A DNA stretch of 64,000 nt from Escherichia coli (GTDB lineage: Bacteria; Pseudomonadota; Gammaproteobacteria; Enterobacterales; Enterobacteriaceae), in assembly GCF_001677475.2 (NCBI RefSeq), contig NZ_CP015229.1; one strand, 5' to 3'. The translations under genes and the position numbers were made by a program. This document shows positions 16-41,389 of the stretch, piece by piece. Each line of letters opens with the position of its first letter. Positions within the stretch are counted from its first letter, which is position 1. The notes beneath the pieces are model-generated. The model was not told the origin of the DNA and searched no databases. It saw only the letters and a list, made by a program, of their open reading frames with translations.

Positions 16-2088
16 TTATTGTGTGTAAATGTCTCCCTTTAAAAAGTCTGGCCAGTTTTTTTCAAAGTAAATACCGTTAATACACGGTTGCATACGTAAA
101 GACTTTACTTCGGTAATAAAAGAACCTTGCGAATATTGAATTGTTAATTTGTGATTTTTATCTTCAGCGAGTTCAGAGCGAAAACGCCATTCTTCTTTTA
201 CGCCGCGACGAGTTTGTGGTAGGCATTTGCCTTGTGGATCAATAACCATCCGCGCCCCACGACTGCCGCCACCAGCATCAATATAATGCGTTAATTGTGT
301 TAATACCGCGGCAGAAGTCAGCGCCATATGCCGCCACATAAACAGCTCGGAAACTTCACCCACATGTTTGATTGCCAATCCATGCCGTTGGACAAATTCG
401 TTCAATAGCAGGGCATCGCGAGTGGCGCGTCGGACTTTATCGGCATGGCAAATAAATCCCGCATAGTCAGACATTCGTGCCTGAATTTTTTCTCTCACAA
501 CCGACAACGGCATCCCGGTCCCGTTATCGTGCGCCTGAGTAATGATCTCTCTTATAGAAGCCAGTGCCGGAGCTGCCAGCTGTGCTATATCTCCATCAAT
601 ATTCCGCTTTTGCGTGCAACCAATAAAACGTGCCAGACGCACGGCAAAAACCTGCCCGGCATTCAATGCCGCACCACCAGGGCGAGTGACGCCGTGTGTG
701 CCAGCAACTTCCCCCACTGCAAAACAACCGGGCAGAGATGTTTGTCCCCAGATATCCACTTCAATGCCGCCATTCATATGCTGATTATTCATGGCAAACT
801 GCAATGGCTGCGTGGTGAGATCGTAACCGTGCATCTTATACAGCGAGATAGACAGCGGATTCATTCGTTGCAGTCGTTCGATGGGCGATGGCGCCAGGGC
901 GTCGTTATTTTCCAGATACGCGCGAACGTCGTCGTCCAGTCGTTCTAATGAGAATGGCAGGTCACCCGGCACAGGTTCAGGATTGCGATTGAAATCCATA
1001 AATACCTGACGCCCTGATTGCTGCTCTTGCGCCACCGCCATATCTAACAAGCTGGAGCCAAAATCCATTACCCGCGTGGCGTGGAACGGCCACTGATAGC
1101 CTTTACGGAAGATGTTTGAAGCCAGCTCCTGGGTGGTGCGATAGTAATCTGCGAGGAAGTTATACTCGTTGCCCTCGGCATCCACGGAATAGATATATGG
1201 GATCACTTGTACATAGGTGCCGGACAAATTCCACGGAAACGTGCTGCGCGGCGTGCCTATACCAAACTGGCTTTCGGTCAGATTAGTTAGTGTCAGGCCT
1301 TCCTCCAGCGCCAGCCCCAGCGAGCCAAAACATTTGTGTGGGTACACACTGTCGCGATAAAGCTCGCCCGGCCCGCCTGTTGCCAGTACCACATTGGGCG
1401 CAGTCACAATTGCCAGCCCCCACGGGTTATGGGCGCGGGAACCGGTTGCGAGGATAGCCCCGGCCACACGATCTTCGCCGTTTTCACCGCGTTGATGCAG
1501 CAGTTTAATCACCGTTGCACTGGTCAACAGTGGGATGGCGAGGCGCTGCACTTCTTCGAGCAATACTTTCACCATCAGACGAGAAGTGCGCGGCCCACAG
1601 GAGGTTGCGCGTCCGGCTTCGTCATGGTCGGTCTGATAACGGAGAATTGCACCATAGCGATCTTCCGGTAATTCCAGACCGAGATATTGCAGCCCGCCAA
1701 GGGTATGTAGGGAACCGACCGCTTCGACATACGCCGTGTCGTGATCCATCGCACCGCCGCTCGCCAGTGCTTCAGCAAGTTTTGCGAAGTTATCGCCGTT
1801 GCCCGCCGTTGCGGCGGTAAACAGCGTCTGTTTATCGGAACCGGAGCAGGCCGATGTTCCCATGTATAACCCGGCGGTGGCGATTAGCACATTTTGCTGG
1901 CGACGTTTCAGTTCAACCGCCGCACGTAATCCTGCCGCGCCGCTACCAACGACCAGAGCATCTGTTTGCCAGAGCGGGTAATCAACACCGTCCACCGTGA
2001 CAATTGACGTTGGCTCTGCTGACACAAAACCCTTCGGGAAAGTGACGTGCGTCAGCGCATCGAGGATGGCGTCATCAGTCTGGCTCAT
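16..2088 (-). CDS. FAD-dependent oxidoreductase, fumarate reductase/succinate dehydrogenase flavoprotein-like (KstD/TcuA-type), 690 aa
   Basis: Full-length ORF; Rossmann motif VVGSGAAG about 45 aa from the N-terminus followed by a GTSACSGS motif; start overlaps the stop of the upstream CoA-transferase gene by 4 bp. Confidence 0.7.
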   Translation of the reverse strand: MSQTDDAILDALTHVTFPKGFVSAEPTSIVTVDGVDYPLWQTDALVVGSGAAGLRAAVELKRRQQNVLIATAGLYMGTSACSGSDKQTLFTAATAGNGDNFAKLAEALASGGAMDHDTAYVEAVGSLHTLGGLQYLGLELPEDRYGAILRYQTDHDEAGRATSCGPRTSRLMVKVLLEEVQRLAIPLLTSATVIKLLHQRGENGEDRVAGAILATGSRAHNPWGLAIVTAPNVVLATGGPGELYRDSVYPHKCFGSLGLALEEGLTLTNLTESQFGIGTPRSTFPWNLSGTYVQVIPYIYSVDAEGNEYNFLADYYRTTQELASNIFRKGYQWPFHATRVMDFGSSLLDMAVAQEQQSGRQVFMDFNRNPEPVPGDLPFSLERLDDDVRAYLENNDALAPSPIERLQRMNPLSISLYKMHGYDLTTQPLQFAMNNQHMNGGIEVDIWGQTSLPGCFAVGEVAGTHGVTRPGGAALNAGQVFAVRLARFIGCTQKRNIDGDIAQLAAPALASIREIITQAHDNGTGMPLSVVREKIQARMSDYAGFICHADKVRRATRDALLLNEFVQRHGLAIKHVGEVSELFMWRHMALTSAAVLTQLTHYIDAGGGSRGARMVIDPQGKCLPQTRRGVKEEWRFRSELAEDKNHKLTIQYSQGSFITEVKSLRMQPCINGIYFEKNWPDFLKGDIYTQ

Positions 2089-3626
2089 GCGTCCTCCATT
2101 GGCGTAAACAGGCTACTTTCCATCAGGCGCGGCTGGTTGATAATTGGACGGAAAGCCATGAACGGCAGAATGTCGCGGTCAATCTCCACGCCCGGCGCGA
2201 TTTCAATTAATTCAACGCCTTCTGCCGTTAACTGAAACACCGCGCGTTCAGTGATATACAACACTTCCTGACCGCTGTGCTGTGCGTAGGCGGCGCTAAA
2301 AGTGATTTTTTCCACCTGAGTAACCAGTTTAGGGATTTGACCTGACTGGGCGATATGCAAGCCATCTGGCGTTACATCAATCTTGCTGCCTTTGGCGTCG
2401 AACGTGCCGCAGAACACCACCTTACGGGCGTTTTGCGCAATTTCGAGAAATCCGCCGGGGCCAATCAGATTGCCATTGAGATGGGAGACGTTGACGTTAC
2501 CGTACTGATCCATCTCTCCCATGCCGAGGAAGGTGATATCGATCCCTCCGCCACTGTAGAACTCAAATTGATCGAGTGATGGAATAATGGCATCGGCGTT
2601 GCGGGCGCAGCCGAAAAACGCATCATCCAGCATCATACCGTTATGCACGCCTTGCTCGACGCTCAGCCATAAACTTTGGTAAGGCACGCCTTCGCGCAGC
2701 GCTACTCCTGGAATGCCGCCGGGAATACCAAAGCCAAAGTTGGTTGAAGCGCCAGCTACCAGTTCGCGTGCTGCCCGACGGGCAATCAGGCGACGTACCG
2801 GATGACTAACCAGTTCAATAGCGTCGTTAGAACTCAGACGGCGATGTTGGCCGCTGATGGTCAGGTCGTAACCGCCAAGATAGGTTTGTGGCTGTTCGCG
2901 GTGTTCAACGATGCCATCAACCAGAATGCCCGGTAATTTGACTCGGCGTGGTTCAATCGCGCCAGCTTCCAGCACATCGCGTACCTGTACAAACACTTTG
3001 CCGCCGCTGTTGTGTGCTGCCAGCGCCATGGAATAGCTATCCATATCAATCGCTTCTTCTTCAAGGCTGACGTTGCCCCGAGGATCGGCATAAGTGCCAC
3101 GCAAAATCGCGTAATCGACTTTGAAAGGGCGATAACGAAGTTTGGTTTCACCGTCGATTTCAATCAGTTCTACCAGGTCGTCGGTAGTGCATTCATTCGA
3201 CTTACCGCCGCCATTGCGTGGATCAACAAACGATCCCAGCCCAACGTGGGTAAAAAGCCCCGGACGTCCGGCGCCGATCTCCCGTAGCAGTGCCTGAATC
3301 ACGCCACCAGGAAAACAATAGGCTTCAATCGCGTTATTTTTTACCAGCGCCTGCATTTTGGGTGACCAGGTAAAGTGTCCGGCAATAATGCGTTTGAGCA
3401 TTTCAGCATGAGCGAAGCGGTTCGTGCCTTTGCAGTCGCGATCGCCAATGCCCAGCGAGTGGATTAATGTCAGATCGCGCGGGTGTCCGGTTTGCAGGAA
3501 GCGCGCTTCAATGGCTGCCAGAATATGGTCGGCTTCCACCATGCCGCCGCCGTTACCGCTAATGGCAATGGTTGCGCCATCCTGAATTTGCGCCGCCAGT
3601 GCCTCGGCGGTTGTTATCTTACGCAT
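2085..3626 (-). CDS. Family I CoA-transferase (acetyl-CoA hydrolase/transferase-like, fused subunits), 513 aa
   Basis: ORF with N-terminal AISGNGGG and a central glycine-rich region typical of fused CoA-transferases; 9-bp spacing to the upstream gene. Confidence 0.7.
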   Translation of the reverse strand: MRKITTAEALAAQIQDGATIAISGNGGGMVEADHILAAIEARFLQTGHPRDLTLIHSLGIGDRDCKGTNRFAHAEMLKRIIAGHFTWSPKMQALVKNNAIEAYCFPGGVIQALLREIGAGRPGLFTHVGLGSFVDPRNGGGKSNECTTDDLVELIEIDGETKLRYRPFKVDYAILRGTYADPRGNVSLEEEAIDMDSYSMALAAHNSGGKVFVQVRDVLEAGAIEPRRVKLPGILVDGIVEHREQPQTYLGGYDLTISGQHRRLSSNDAIELVSHPVRRLIARRAARELVAGASTNFGFGIPGGIPGVALREGVPYQSLWLSVEQGVHNGMMLDDAFFGCARNADAIIPSLDQFEFYSGGGIDITFLGMGEMDQYGNVNVSHLNGNLIGPGGFLEIAQNARKVVFCGTFDAKGSKIDVTPDGLHIAQSGQIPKLVTQVEKITFSAAYAQHSGQEVLYITERAVFQLTAEGVELIEIAPGVEIDRDILPFMAFRPIINQPRLMESSLFTPMEDA

Positions 3627-3635
3627 ACAATTTCC

Positions 3636-4412
3636 TTAGTGATTATGGAAGCTCACGCTACTTTTTTCGGCAAATGCCTGCGTCGCCTGCTGGCAATCCT
3701 GAGTGGCGGACATTAATCCAGCCAGTAACTGGTGTGGGTATTCAGCGTGTTTATTTTCCAGTGCCAGAATCAGCTGCTTAATATGCGCCAGTGCCACCGG
3801 ACCACATTTTTCCAGCTGCGCTAACTGGTTCGCCATCCAGCTTTCCACCTGTTCTTTTTCTACTACTTCATCAATTAAATTCGCCGCCTGGGCTTCATGC
3901 GCCGTCAGACGTTTACCTAGCATCAGCATCTGGCGACCGACCACTGGGCCGACCTGATTAATCACGCGTTCAATGCCCATCCAGCCAGGCACCATGCCGA
4001 GCATGACTTCCGGGTTAGAAAATTTCGCGCTGGGGCGAGCGATTCGAATATCGCAGCACAAGGCAAGTTCAATACCGCCGCCGATGGTATGACCGTTGAG
4101 ATTCGCAACCGTTAATTGCGGTAAATTGCGCAGGCGATTAAAAACGTCATTGCCGCGTTTAATCCATTTTCTGCCCATATCTAATGGCGAATAGGCCGAC
4201 CACGATTTAATATCACCGCCCGCACAAAAGAATTTATCGCCGATTGCCGTTAATTCGACTAATCGTAATGTGGTGTCGTTTTCAATTTCATTTAAATAAT
4301 GGTCGAGAGATTCAATCATCTCTTCGTTAATAGCATGACATTTCTCTTCACGGTTCAACGTCAGGCGGCAGGAAGCCGCCGCTCTGCTGAACAGAACGGG
4401 TTGGTCACTCAT
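3636..4412 (-). CDS. Enoyl-CoA hydratase/isomerase (crotonase fold), 258 aa
   Basis: ORF with crotonase-like motifs (FCAGGDI, HTIGGGIELAL). Confidence 0.75.
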   Translation of the reverse strand: MSDQPVLFSRAAASCRLTLNREEKCHAINEEMIESLDHYLNEIENDTTLRLVELTAIGDKFFCAGGDIKSWSAYSPLDMGRKWIKRGNDVFNRLRNLPQLTVANLNGHTIGGGIELALCCDIRIARPSAKFSNPEVMLGMVPGWMGIERVINQVGPVVGRQMLMLGKRLTAHEAQAANLIDEVVEKEQVESWMANQLAQLEKCGPVALAHIKQLILALENKHAEYPHQLLAGLMSATQDCQQATQAFAEKSSVSFHNH

Positions 4413-4421
4413 GATTATTCC

Positions 4422-5264
4422 TTAGCAATAATTCGCGATGCGATCGACGCTAATATCCAGCGTGTTGTTAATATCTTTCTGCCACCAGTACGGTGAGAAT
4501 ATTTCCAGTTCAATAGCGCCATTAAATCCGGCGTTTTCAACCAGTCGACGAATTGACGGAATATTTATCACGCCATCTCCCGGCATTCCCCGGTCATTGA
4601 CCAGATCGGTGGTCGGCACTAACCAGTCGGAAACATGAAACGCGAGAATACGTTTTCCGGCGCGCAGGAGCTGGCTGGCCAGATCCGGATCCCACCAGAC
4701 ATGGTAAACATCCACAGCCACGCCGAGGCCAAATTCGCCATCGGGATCGAGTTCATCACACCAGTCCAGCGCCTGGCGTAACGTGCACAGGCAAGAGCGA
4801 TCGGCGGCGGTCATTGGGTGCAGTGGCTCCAGCGCAATCGGCACGCCAACGTCTTTCGAATGTGGCAGTAACTGGCGTATCCCTTGTTTCACCTGTTCCC
4901 GTGCTTCATACAGATCTTTTGTGCCCTGCGGTAACCCGCCAACCACCTGCATATAACAGGCGGCGTTCAGCACCGCTGCGTCGTCCAGCGCCCGGCGGTT
5001 ATCATCAATTGCCAGTTTGCGTTCCGCCAGCGTCGGCGCGGTGTAGTAGGTGCTACGGCATAAACCGGAAACGCGCATGTTATTGACGGCAAGCTGGCGG
5101 GCGATCTGCTGAAGATCTTCACCCTGCAACTCTCTGCGCCAGGGGGCGATCGCACCGATACCGCGTGCGGCACAGGCATCAATAATGGCGGGTAGCGGCG
5201 TTTTATAGCCCAGTGTTGCGGTATTGATACTGAATAAATCCGGGCGTTGTAACAGATCTCTCAT
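4422..5264 (-). CDS. Sugar phosphate isomerase/epimerase (xylose isomerase-like TIM barrel), 280 aa
   Basis: ORF whose translation resembles the AP-endonuclease-2/xylose-isomerase-like TIM-barrel family. Confidence 0.65.
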   Translation of the reverse strand: MRDLLQRPDLFSINTATLGYKTPLPAIIDACAARGIGAIAPWRRELQGEDLQQIARQLAVNNMRVSGLCRSTYYTAPTLAERKLAIDDNRRALDDAAVLNAACYMQVVGGLPQGTKDLYEAREQVKQGIRQLLPHSKDVGVPIALEPLHPMTAADRSCLCTLRQALDWCDELDPDGEFGLGVAVDVYHVWWDPDLASQLLRAGKRILAFHVSDWLVPTTDLVNDRGMPGDGVINIPSIRRLVENAGFNGAIELEIFSPYWWQKDINNTLDISVDRIANYC

Positions 5265-5273
5265 GATTCAGCC

Positions 5274-6065
5274 TCAGAAGCGCGGCATACTTAAGCCGCC
5301 GTCGATGGCGACCGCCTGACCACAGGTGTAAATCAGTTTACCTTCCGCCATCGCGCGGACGGTGGAGGCAATATCAGCCGGATAACCCCAACGTCCCCAC
5401 GGCACCAGACCTTTGGCAATCAGTTCGTCGTAATAAGCCGTTGCTGGAATAGTCATATCGGTTTTGATGAGACCAGGGCGCACTTCATAGACGCCAATTT
5501 GTTCGTTGCAAAGGCGAGCAGCAAACAGACGAGCAGCGGCAGAAACGGCGGTTTTGGCAATTGTGTATTCGCCGCGATTCATCGCCAGCATGATGGCGTT
5601 GATGGAACTGACAAAAATAATTGAGCGGTGCGGGAATTCTGTTTCTGGTTTTGGCTGTGCGAGCAGACGTTTACTGAATGCCTGTGCAAGGAAGAACGGT
5701 GCGCGGGTGTTAATGGCAATATTTTGGTCGAAGCTGTCTGGTTCCAGGTCGAGAAGGTCACCGCGTTTTTTCACTGAAATGCCTGCGTTGTTGAGCAGGC
5801 AGTCCAGACGTCCCCACTGGTTTTGCGCTGCGTCGAGCATCTCTTCATGCAGGGAGAGATCGCCAACATCGGCAGGGAAGCAAATCACTTCCACGCCTTC
5901 CGCCAGACATTCTTGTTGTGTGACATGTAATTTTTCAACGCTATCGGCATCCGGACGATCATTAATCAGCAGATTAAATCCGCCACGCGCAAGCTCCAGC
6001 GCACAGCCCTTTCCAATACCACGAGCGGCTCCGGTAATCACGGCAACAGGACGAGTGGATTTCAT
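5274..6065 (-). CDS. Short-chain dehydrogenase/reductase (SDR), 263 aa
   Basis: N-terminal TGAARGIG cofactor motif and YxxxK catalytic motif (YTIAK); first gene of the five-gene operon. Confidence 0.8.
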   Translation of the reverse strand: MKSTRPVAVITGAARGIGKGCALELARGGFNLLINDRPDADSVEKLHVTQQECLAEGVEVICFPADVGDLSLHEEMLDAAQNQWGRLDCLLNNAGISVKKRGDLLDLEPDSFDQNIAINTRAPFFLAQAFSKRLLAQPKPETEFPHRSIIFVSSINAIMLAMNRGEYTIAKTAVSAAARLFAARLCNEQIGVYEVRPGLIKTDMTIPATAYYDELIAKGLVPWGRWGYPADIASTVRAMAEGKLIYTCGQAVAIDGGLSMPRF

Positions 6066-6133
6066 ACAATAGCTCTCTTTTTTTGAATTTTGTTTCCTTA
6101 GTGATGATTAGCTTGCGACTGGAGGATAAAAAG

Positions 6134-6155
6134 ATCAACCATCTAGTTGGTTGAT
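6134..6155. promoter_or_regulatory. Perfect 8-bp inverted repeat ATCAACCA-tctagt-TGGTTGAT in the divergent SDR/TetR promoter region; candidate TetR operator
   Basis: Palindrome read directly from the sequence; position between divergently transcribed regulator and operon. Confidence 0.4.
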
Positions 6156-6277
6156 ATGCGATGACGATCACAGGACATTTGATAACCTGATGAAAGTACA
6201 AGTTTTTGCCCTTTTTTCTGAAGCTGAAATCAAATCAGGTTATGATAGTCACCACGAAGAGGTCGTGGGGAAGCGTT

Positions 6278-6925
6278 ATGTATATTGATACCAGCAACGT
6301 ACAGAGCCTGAAGGAAAAGCTGCTGTTATGCGCGGTTAATGAATTTGCCGAATATGGTTATGAAGGGGCCAGGGTCGATAATATTGTTAAGTCTGCGGGG
6401 TGTAGTAAACAGACGGTTTATCACCACTTTGGTAATAAAGAAAATTTATTTATTGAAGTACTGGAATATACCTGGAACGATATTCGAAAAAAAGAAAAGG
6501 CCCTTGATTTCTCAGATCTTCCGCCACAAAAAGCCATTGAGAAAATTATTGATTTTACATGGGATTATTATATTGCTAATCCCTGGTTTTTAAAAATTGT
6601 GCATAGTGAAAATCAAAGTAAAGGTGTGCATTATGCAAAATCACAGCGTCTCTTAGAAATTAACCATGCGCACTTGCAGTTAATGGAATCCTTATTGGAG
6701 GAAGGGAAGAAACACAATATTTTTAAGCCAGATATCGACCCATTGCAGGTGAATATTAATATTGCTGCGCTTGGGGGATATTATTTGATCAACCAGCATA
6801 CGCTTGGCCTGGTTTATCACATCAGTATGGTTTCACCCCAGGCACTGGAAGCCAGACGTAAGGTCATCAAAGAGACGCTCCTTAGCTGGCTTTTGGTTGA
6901 CCCCTCATCTACCGCGCACGAATAA
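6278..6925 (+). CDS. TetR/AcrR-family transcriptional regulator (intact counterpart of the K-12 ytfA fragment, by recollection)
   Basis: N-terminal HTH region ([27 protein letters not shown]); ATG at 6278 preceded by a GGGGAAG Shine-Dalgarno-like sequence; the track ORF begins further upstream at a TTG. Confidence 0.75.
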
Positions 6926-7547
6926 AACTGCCATCCGGCTGACGGGTAAACAGGACCTGTTGATTATTCCCCGTATCAATGGTTAAGCCCGTCACCACGC
7001 CGCTGGCGTTCTGGCGGATTTTCACCATCTGCCCGTTTTGCAAATTACTCAGCGGCTTATCCGCGCCTTCTACCTGCGCCATTGCATAGACATCGGTAGC
7101 GGGCAGTCCGTGGTCGCGGAACAGCTGCGCCATCGTTTTACCGGGTTCGACACGGTAAGAGCGCCATTGATTATCAATTCCGCTATCTGGCTGGAATGGT
7201 TGCGTTTGGGTGGTTTGCGGCTGCTCTTCTGGCTGGCCTTCCTGTATTGGTTCTGGAGCGACCGGGGCCACCTGATCAGGATCATTTTGTGGCGTAACTA
7301 GCTGCGCCCGCAGCTGTTCTTCTGTCGGCAGTTGTGATTGCGACTGAATATCTAACTGCGCTTCACGCGTCACCACCGGCGCGTTGGGCGTATCATCAGA
7401 TGGAAGCAGAAATCCGACCACCAATACAATGGCGGCAATAATGATCCCCCGACGATGCATCGGCGGCAGCGGGTCCATGAAGCGAAAATTGTCCGGCGCG
7501 TGCCAGACTTTCTCCAGGGTTGGTTTTAGTTCAAAGCGCCCGGGCAT
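6909..7547 (-). CDS. ytfB: YtfB, OapA/LysM-domain cell-division-associated protein
   Basis: Translation matches the recalled YtfB (212 aa from MPGRFELKP); the track ORF is extended upstream. Confidence 0.85.
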
Positions 7548-7764
7548 GGTTTCCTCCTGCTCCGCGTCTTGTTCCTCAATCATAGCCTATGAATAAGCTA
7601 ACGCTATGATGTCCGTGGTAAACCCGCCTTTATTATATTCATACGGGATATTGCTATTGTTTCTTTTTCCCCGGGATTTGTCATCATTCCCGCGACAAAG
7701 TTTTACCCAAAGAAGTGTGGCTGATATGCTGCCCGCTACTTTATACCCTAAGAAAGGAAATACG

Positions 7765-41349: not shown

Positions 41350-41389
41350 GTCCCCTCTCCCTTGAGGGAGAGGGTTAGGATGAGGGTGG
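41350..41389. repeat. GC-rich hairpin repeat, copy 2 (TCCCCTCTCCCTTGAGGGAGAGGGTTAGGATGAGGGTGG)
   Basis: Near-identical to the element at 31840..31879; contains a 9-bp perfect stem CCCTCTCCC/GGGAGAGGG; lies between nrdD and nrdG. Confidence 0.6.

Follow-up and report, generated by a model that had tools for sequence, protein, structure and literature searches.

The stretch of Escherichia coli DNA analysed here (the window, 64,000 nucleotides) contains a near-palindrome in the intergenic region between an operon headed by an SDR gene and the divergently transcribed gene of the TetR-family regulator YtfA. We concluded, with a probability of roughly 0.7, that this element (6134-6152, or 6134-6155 in its longer form) is the operator of the adjacent regulator, full-length YtfA, which would repress a CRP-dependent promoter of the operon. 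What could be observed directly was the sequence of the element and how it is conserved, the fixed geometry around it, the co-occurrence of the element with the gene cassette and the published in vivo binding of CRP at the orthologous site. As a kind of genetic switch the arrangement is ordinary; for this particular one no published description was found in the literature searched.

The intergenic region comprises 212 bp (6066-6277), with the ATG of the SDR gene at 6065 on the minus strand and the ATG of the TetR gene at 6278. Within this region the 22-mer ATCAACCATCTAGTTGGTTGAT can be written as ATCAACCA-TCTAGT-TGGTTGAT. By direct count its two 8-bp arms were fully complementary. In the 6-nt centre, TCTAGT, only the inner CTAG was symmetric and T was opposite T at the outer positions, giving 10 of 11 pairs and symmetry at 20 of the 22 positions; the repeat finder returned the same site with 11-nt arms and 91% complementarity. 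An earlier reading made from the letters of the DNA (the sequence-only reading) had described a perfect 22-bp palindrome at 6134-6155, midway between the two genes. The location was correct, and domain searches agreed with the flanking genes named there, a divergent SDR operon and a TetR gene. The palindrome was not perfect, its centre being imperfect, and it was found off-centre: the start codon of the SDR gene is 79 bp away from the centre of the site, and that of the TetR gene 133 bp. An inverted repeat beside a regulator gene, in a divergent control region, is what a TetR-family regulator and operator pair should show, and it was found here. Only three 22-mers with at least 10 of 11 pairs were detected in the 64-kb window, and the motif CAACCA-N6-TGGTTG occurred once when up to one mismatch was allowed, compared with 0.14 occurrences expected. 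Other 22-nt palindromes in the window, near-perfect or perfect, were located at 41353-41374 and 61812-61833 (CCCTCTCCCTTGAGGGAGAGGG and AGGCCGGAGCATGCTCCGGCCT).

The site was compared in 23 cassettes whose regulator was 56-97% identical to that of the window. They originated from E. coli lineages, E. whittamii, E. albertii, Salmonella, Klebsiella spallanzanii, Leminorella, Entomohabitans and metagenomic relatives (regulator 56-66% identical); a contig scan gave only ten loci, and most of the diversity came from exact-protein look-ups. Single loci are referred to below by number (L001 and so on). According to the sequence-only reading, the palindrome should not be missing from orthologous loci that keep the operon, and the site was indeed present in 23 of 23 cassettes, in which it formed the best-conserved intergenic block. 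In an alignment of 13 non-redundant loci anchored on the palindrome the mean pairwise identity was 0.85 inside the site versus 0.42 elsewhere, and the best 22-column windows fell on the site. The only 6-mers common to 14 of 14 non-redundant intergenic regions were CAACCA and GTTGGT. In E. coli SL124 the 22-mer was identical to that of the window in an intergenic region that was otherwise essentially unalignable. When a 32-nt query around the site was used it was found in 3143 E. coli genomes, at one place in each, matching the 3140 of 5426 complete E. coli genomes (approx. 58%) that carry the full locus. The site thus co-occurred with the regulator across genomes, as expected for a TetR-family pair, and was absent from genomes without the cassette. 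None of the 3143 occurrences in E. coli was annotated, and the sequence of the site was not found in the literature searched.

Scanning the window and all loci with a position weight matrix (PWM) detected one site of the YtfA type per cassette, with the exception of the metagenomic locus L020, which contained a second. Its two operator-like sites were both on the SDR side, at 4238-4263 and 4288-4309, and the extra one, a doubled AACCAACC-ATTC-GGTTGGTT palindrome, was nearer to the SDR start. TetR genes that share the pattern of the N-terminal domain were retrieved by peptide pattern from a Spirochaete efflux operon (L012) and from a metagenome-assembled genome of the Clostridiaceae (L013). Motifs of the form AAC[CT]A...T[AG]GT-T[AG]GT were present beside these unrelated TetR genes (L012 3931-3952; L013 9-30 and 820-841), which may point to a broader class of operators whose right-hand repeats are in tandem.

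The sequence-only reading had taken the 22-bp dyad, with its 8-6-8 layout, as the unit. The comparison of loci revealed a shorter conserved element of 18-19 bp with a 2-nt spacer, the core ATCAACCA-nn-TRGTTGGTT, in which the arms occupy positions 1-8 and 11-18 around a variable dinucleotide (6142-6143). The information content, calculated from 11 distinct primary sites in the 23 loci, was 2 bits at positions 1, 3-7 and 13-18 and approx. 1.6 bits at positions 2, 8, 11 and 19. At position 12, where A or G is found, it was approx. 1.0 bit, at positions 9 and 10 it was 0.68 bits, and it was 0.65 bits at position 20 and 0.43 bits at position 22. The right outer bases of the 22-bp dyad, GAT, were replaced by GGT, GGA, AAG, AAA or TAG in relatives. 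The left outer bases were conserved and the right ones were not, a difference that the predicted -35 element at the left end, described below, would explain. The right side of the site is a tandem TRGT-TGGT-TGAT array, and as a result two registers are palindromic. In the register with the 2-nt spacer 6-7 of 8 pairs were present in all loci, and in the register with the 6-nt spacer 8 of 8 pairs were present in the window and 5-6 of 8 in the distant group of loci. A symmetric double change was seen once, A8G together with T11C in L020, and it preserved the dyad with the 2-nt spacer. Judged from the sequences, the pattern of invariant arms and a free central dinucleotide is that of a protein site and not of an RNA stem.

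On the operon side, 22 of 23 loci had the centre of the site at a distance of 75-81 bp from the ATG of the SDR gene. Here the outer end of the left arm forms a predicted -35 element on the minus strand, TTGATC, and exactly 17 bp from it a predicted -10 element, CAAGCT, was located. TTGATC was present in 14 of 17 non-redundant loci, the other three containing TTGATT or TTGTTC. The -10 element was found as CATCTT, CATTTT, CATCGT or TAAGTT in relatives, with the A at -11 and the T at -7 invariant. Across the 17 non-redundant loci no insertion or deletion was detected in the 17-bp spacer, although its sequence varied, and a scan of all positions returned TTGATC-17-CAnnnT as the sole promoter-like arrangement found at one fixed position in 17 of 17 loci. 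The idea of a TetR operator put forward in the sequence-only reading was therein borne out, in that the palindrome behaves as a protein-recognition element which travels with the TetR gene and overlaps a conserved promoter-like arrangement on the SDR side.

An adjacent CRP site, absent from the sequence-only reading, was identified to the right of the palindrome. Its core, TGCGA-tgacga-TCACA (TGCGAtgacgaTCACA), matched the CRP core at 9 of 10 positions and was the only such match in the window. The distance between its centre and that of the palindrome was 20 bp in the window and 19-20 bp in the first 18 of 18 loci (8-10 of 10 matches) as well as in four of the five loci added later, giving 22 of 23; in L026 the right half was degenerate. 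The CRP centre was 49.5-50.5 bp from the invariant A at -11, which places it at -60.5 or -61.5 relative to the predicted start. We counted as class I those CRP sites that are centred near -61.5, -71.5, -82.5 or -92.5 and have a TGTGA-N6-TCACA match bound in vivo, and such a match with in vivo CRP binding was found at the orthologous site. Haycocks et al. (2015, PMC4287617, Table 1) listed for enterotoxigenic E. coli (ETEC) H10407 a high-confidence CRP peak from chromatin immunoprecipitation followed by sequencing (ChIP-seq), with the site TGTGATCACTATCGCA, between 'ETEC-specific' and ytfA. We located this 16-mer in NC_017633.1 (L022, L024), directly to the right of the palindrome ATCAACCATCTGGTTGGTTGAT. 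The coordinates printed in PMC4287617 were approx. 190-197 bp below the RefSeq positions, and the same shift was observed at a control site, yjfY/rpsF. The centre of the ChIP-seq peak was therefore within approx. 7 bp of the CRP site. We concluded that CRP occupies the neighbouring site in vivo in the related strain ETEC H10407. A class II model, in which CRP would be centred at -41.5 and transcription would start near 6123, was rejected, as no conserved -10-like hexamer was found at the required place. A block ATAAC[CT], approx. 10 bp to the right of the CRP site, was moderately conserved and is without explanation.

We infer YtfA binding, the transcription start, repression and an inducer, and the following mechanism is proposed. 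The SDR/coenzyme A (CoA) pathway operon would be read from a weak minus-strand sigma-70 promoter (-35 TTGATC at 6138-6133, 17-bp spacer, -10 CAAGCT at 6115-6110) starting near 6103, and this promoter would need CRP with cyclic AMP bound at 6157-6172, the class I position -61.5. A YtfA dimer at about -31 to -48/-52 would cover the -35 hexamer as well as the stretch of DNA that separates RNA polymerase from CRP, and its occupancy would block both polymerase binding and CRP-dependent activation. A ligand, most likely the organic acid that is transported or one of the CoA-thioester intermediates in the pathway, would release YtfA, so that expression of the operon would require both the presence of the substrate and the absence of glucose. 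The ytfA gene would be read from its own promoter approx. 150 bp away, outside the operator.

Parts of this arrangement resemble known systems. TetR-tetO, QacR-IR1 and AcrR-acrAB are classical TetR-family pairs, and in tetR/tetA a short intergenic region contains operators that overlap the promoters of both genes. The YtfA site has in common with them a divergent regulator, a proposed palindromic operator in the shared intergenic region placed over the predicted target promoter, and an expected induction by ligand release. It differs from tetR/tetA in that the predicted promoters are approx. 150 bp apart and back to back, that the operon promoter alone would be overlapped and that CRP dependence is predicted in addition. 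At deoP2 the LacI-family repressor CytR binds between two CRP sites and requires direct contact with CRP. The likeness consists in a proposed repressor site beside CRP, between CRP and the core promoter, which would give an AND-logic of substrate present and glucose absent. In contrast to CytR at deoP2, there is a single CRP site here, the protein belongs to the TetR family and the mechanism is read from geometry alone.

The regulator itself was examined by domain and fold searches. Both Pfam domains of YtfA, TetR_N (E = 4e-14) and TetR_C_29 (E = 3e-30), were above cut-off. The AlphaFold2 (AF2) model had a predicted local distance difference test (pLDDT) score of 91.7 and consisted of helices throughout, and its top folds in the PDB all belonged to the TetR family. 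An N-terminal helix-turn-helix together with an all-helical C-terminal ligand and dimerisation domain, the features of a TetR-family member, were thus both found. The helix-turn-helix, ending in [FY]GNKENLF, was nearly invariant over the range of 56-97% identity, which matches the invariance of the site arms. YtfA also resembles Bacillus FadR, Thermus FadR/PfmR and KstR2, TetR regulators of CoA-thioester pathways, through a weak similarity of sequence and fold that includes the ligand domain (NCBIfam FadR E = 2e-12, below cut-off; related PDB entries 3vpr, 3whb and 5gp9). It differs from these acyl-CoA-responsive regulators in that it reaches no family cut-off and that the operators are unrelated in sequence. 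The ytfA gene has been listed among the uncharacterised TetR-family regulators of E. coli and Salmonella (PMC6790063), and the name is also used in PMC4287617.

Several observations weigh against YtfA as the repressor at this promoter. The predicted -10 element is poor, with 2-3 of 6 consensus matches, and a promoter scan of the region predicted no promoter. The two dyad registers, with 2-nt and 6-nt spacers, coexist, and they do not settle the exact operator or its stoichiometry. Two loci with regulator homologues of 35% identity (L009 and L011) had no related motif or inverted repeat upstream. In the literature searched no binding, footprint, transcription-start or expression data on YtfA or on the promoter were found. 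We infer the identity of the binder from co-inheritance alone, and cross-binding by RutR or another host factor is possible.

A classical shared operator of the tetR/tetA type, in which the one palindrome represses the promoters of both the operon and the regulator, would correspond to the claim of the sequence-only reading that the site controls both promoters. The two genes are divergent, with a single conserved palindrome between them, and the distance from the operator to the ytfA -10 element was constant, at 95.5-96.5 bp, in Escherichia, Salmonella, Klebsiella and Leminorella. The -10 element of ytfA was predicted as TATGAT, 37 bp before the ATG and approx. 96 bp from the operator in the window, with a predicted transcription start near 6253; in relatives it was found 33-44 bp before the ATG, as TATAGT preceded by TGn in the distant group and as TATAAT in L003 and L020. 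Across lineages, however, its distance from the operator varied from approx. 85 to approx. 330 bp: it was 107.5-114.5 bp in the distant group, 85.5 bp in L020 and 255 to approx. 330 bp in L003, L008 and L026, where AT-rich insertions of 150-210 bp were present. The distance on the SDR side is fixed by comparison. The right outer bases of the palindrome vary, and the PWM scan detected no second operator-like site near the ytfA promoter. A weak plus-strand promoter could be drawn in the window from the right arm, with TTGATA (6151-6156) as -35, a 17-bp spacer and GACATT; it was rejected, since it was not conserved outside Escherichia, neither in Salmonella nor in the distant group. As the operator does not overlap the core promoter of ytfA, steric autoregulation is not expected, and the overlap with the regulator promoter that characterises the tetR/tetA type was not found. 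We therefore consider control of both promoters from this site unlikely and keep to repression of the operon promoter.

Two further inverted repeats were noted on the ytfA side. The first (I3) is a perfect 10-nt repeat, ATAACCTGAT/ATCAGGTTAT, at 6182-6191 and 6234-6243 with 42 nt between the arms, and its right arm overlaps the predicted ytfA -10 element. It was rejected as a real or second operator, the pair being lost in Salmonella and Klebsiella. The second (I5), a 9-nt inverted repeat TCACCACGA/TCGTGGGGA at 6249-6271, is located in the 5' untranslated region of ytfA, where it could mask the ribosome-binding site; RNAalifold on nine relatives yielded no consensus structure for this hairpin, and it was discarded.

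The coexistence of the two registers also allows a dual-register operator. One left arm, ATCAACCA, would face the tandem array, so that dyads with 2-nt and 6-nt spacers overlap, and YtfA, binding in both registers or as a pair of staggered dimers, would serve as a wedge. CRP would thereby be uncoupled from RNA polymerase (anti-activation), in place of a simple block of the -35 element, and the ytfA gene itself would be left unregulated. Arrays that resemble such a site were found beside the TetR genes of the Spirochaete and of the relative of Clostridium, and in a doubled form, (AACC)2-N4-(GGTT)2, in L020. We regard the dual-register arrangement as a tentative and rather doubtful variant.

It is improbable, in our estimation, that the palindrome is bound mainly by a factor encoded by the host, e.g. 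the chromosomal TetR paralogue RutR, and not by YtfA. Among characterised proteins, the fold closest to the YtfA model was that of E. coli RutR (TM score 0.73-0.79), and the neighbouring CRP site demonstrates that host factors act at this locus. The RutR box, TTGACCAnnTGGTCAA, comprises 16 bp with a critical A at position 4 and a critical T at position 13, and in vitro binding has been shown for sites that match at 9 of 14 positions (PMC2475637). The YtfA site shares with it the ACCA-nn-TGGT core and the 2-nt spacer. Of the 14 positions of the RutR consensus, the YtfA site matched 8 in the window and 9 in its common CTGG variant, among them the critical positions 4 and 13. However, the outer TTG...CAA that defines the RutR box was replaced by TCA...TGG, and this difference was invariant. 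The two proteins are approx. 20% identical, and the YtfA site has an extra TGGT repeat on its right side, which generates the second register with the 6-nt spacer. Whereas RutR targets pyrimidine genes, a regulon without evident link to this operon, the target of YtfA would be a CoA-dependent catabolic cassette. The site was, moreover, strictly co-inherited with ytfA across genomic contexts and genera, and YtfA remains for us the preferred binder.

That the palindrome is an intrinsic, possibly bidirectional, terminator or an RNA hairpin (8-bp stem, 6-nt loop, T-run on the minus strand) was judged very improbable. A terminator scan did flag it on the minus strand, with a hairpin of -9 kcal/mol (z = -3.35). 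The stem has only three G-C pairs and the hairpin is weak, no minus-strand gene is transcribed towards it, and the palindrome is located upstream of the conserved promoter-like elements. Stem positions 20-22 changed without compensation, leaving 5-6 of 8 pairs in the distant group, and no match to a known RNA family was obtained from Rfam for 5900-6450. The G+C-rich stem, the position at the end of a transcription unit and the maintained pairing of an intrinsic terminator were accordingly not found.

Hardly more credible is a coding constraint from a small open reading frame on the plus strand that crosses the palindrome (TTG/ATG at 6113 ... ATC AAC CAT CTA GTT GGT TGA, 13 codons). An in-frame ATG was found at a fixed distance in most loci, with the stop, TGA or TAA, in the right arm, and the changes at the two variable codons were mostly conservative (H/Q and L/I/M). 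The frame was reduced to 4-6 codons in L003, L008 and Salmonella (L014), in the window it begins with TTG instead of ATG, and no Shine-Dalgarno sequence precedes it. The third-codon positions in the arms were invariant, which argues for a constraint on the DNA level, and on the other strand the conserved ATG reads as the CAT within the -10 hexamer. A chance palindrome without function deserves next to no credence: the window does contain 38 inverted repeats with perfect 8-bp arms and spacers of 0-10 nt, but a 22-mer with at least 10 of 11 pairs arose in only 0.25% of 20,000 shuffles of the 212-bp region, the identical 22-mer persists in a diverged intergenic region, and the core is invariant in 23 loci.

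Coordinates of the operator, the promoter elements and the genes of the locus in the window; promoter elements are predictions.
Feature	Position	Strand	Remarks
Near-palindrome, 22-mer	6134..6155	strandless	8-bp perfect arms
Conserved 19-bp core, proposed YtfA operator	6134..6152	strandless	delimited by information content
Predicted -35 of operon promoter, TTGATC	6133..6138	-	outer end of left arm; 4/6 consensus matches
Predicted -10 of operon promoter, CAAGCT	6110..6115	-	exactly 17 bp from -35; predicted start near 6103
CRP site core	6157..6172		22-bp extent 6154-6175; centre 6164.5
Predicted -10 of ytfA, TATGAT	6241..6246	+	
ytfA, full-length TetR-family regulator	6278..6925	+	215 aa; TetR_N + TetR_C_29; Pfam, AF2 model
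Target operon, five genes	16..6065	-	domain searches
SDR gene	5274-6065	-	
Xylose-isomerase-like TIM barrel gene	4422-5264	-	
Enoyl-CoA hydratase gene	3636-4412	-	
CoA transferase gene, fused	2085-3626	-	
FAD flavoprotein gene	16-2088	-	690 aa

In relatives the operon was found to run on to an MFS or TRAP transporter, past the start of the window. This terminal transporter was swapped between strains: an MFS gene was present in most of them (L001 2447-3724) and TRAP permease genes in E. coli 07-4299 (L002 1-1787), which suggests a carboxylate as the substrate. For the operon proteins NCBIfam gave generic names only, the PDB relatives of the TIM-barrel protein were uncharacterised, and for the flavoprotein no PDB relative was found at E < 1e-10. 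Nothing specific on the function of the operon was found in the literature searched. The cassette of transporter, CoA transferase, flavoprotein, hydratase, SDR, TIM-barrel enzyme and ytfA is widespread and has no assigned function, and the operator and promoter model would provide an experimental handle on it. A reporter on the operon promoter in a ytfA+ strain would be a route to the inducer and hence to the substrate of the pathway, and the 19-bp site together with YtfA is a candidate for an orthogonal repressor/operator pair. The general principles of gene regulation are unchanged by the finding.

The window is part of an Escherichia chromosome, with ytfB, fklB, cycA and ytfE to the right of the locus; rplI is to the left of the locus in relatives. 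The cassette was also found in Salmonella, Klebsiella and other enterobacteria, and since its chromosomal context differed among the loci collected, it moves as a unit. In K-12-type E. coli (L023) only a C-terminal remnant of ytfA was left, a pseudogene corresponding to 6523-6818 of the window, and the place of the cassette, together with the operator and the CRP site, is taken by yjfZ. A natural knock-out of ytfA was detected in E. coli MDR_56, where an IS4-like element of the ISVsa5 family splits the TetR gene (NZ_CP019903.1, 1719340-1722478).

E. coli SL124 (L003 7867-8232) carried SDR and TetR alleles approx. 80% identical to those of the window at the same chromosomal position, with an intergenic region of 366 bp. 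Likewise expanded intergenic regions were found in Entomohabitans (L008, 423 bp), which is of the same divergent type as SL124, and in a metagenomic contig (L026, 377 bp). The SL124-type allele looks like an allelic replacement that came about through horizontal transfer; an AT-rich insert separates its CRP site from the ytfA promoter. In E. coli KC-Dl-1 a hipBA-type toxin-antitoxin pair was located between rplI and the cassette (L001 542-2304), which other strains do not have. At the right end of the locus ytfA, with its stop at 6925 on the plus strand, converges with ytfB, encoded at 6909-7583 on the minus strand, and the two genes overlap at their 3' ends by 17 bp, at 6909-6925.

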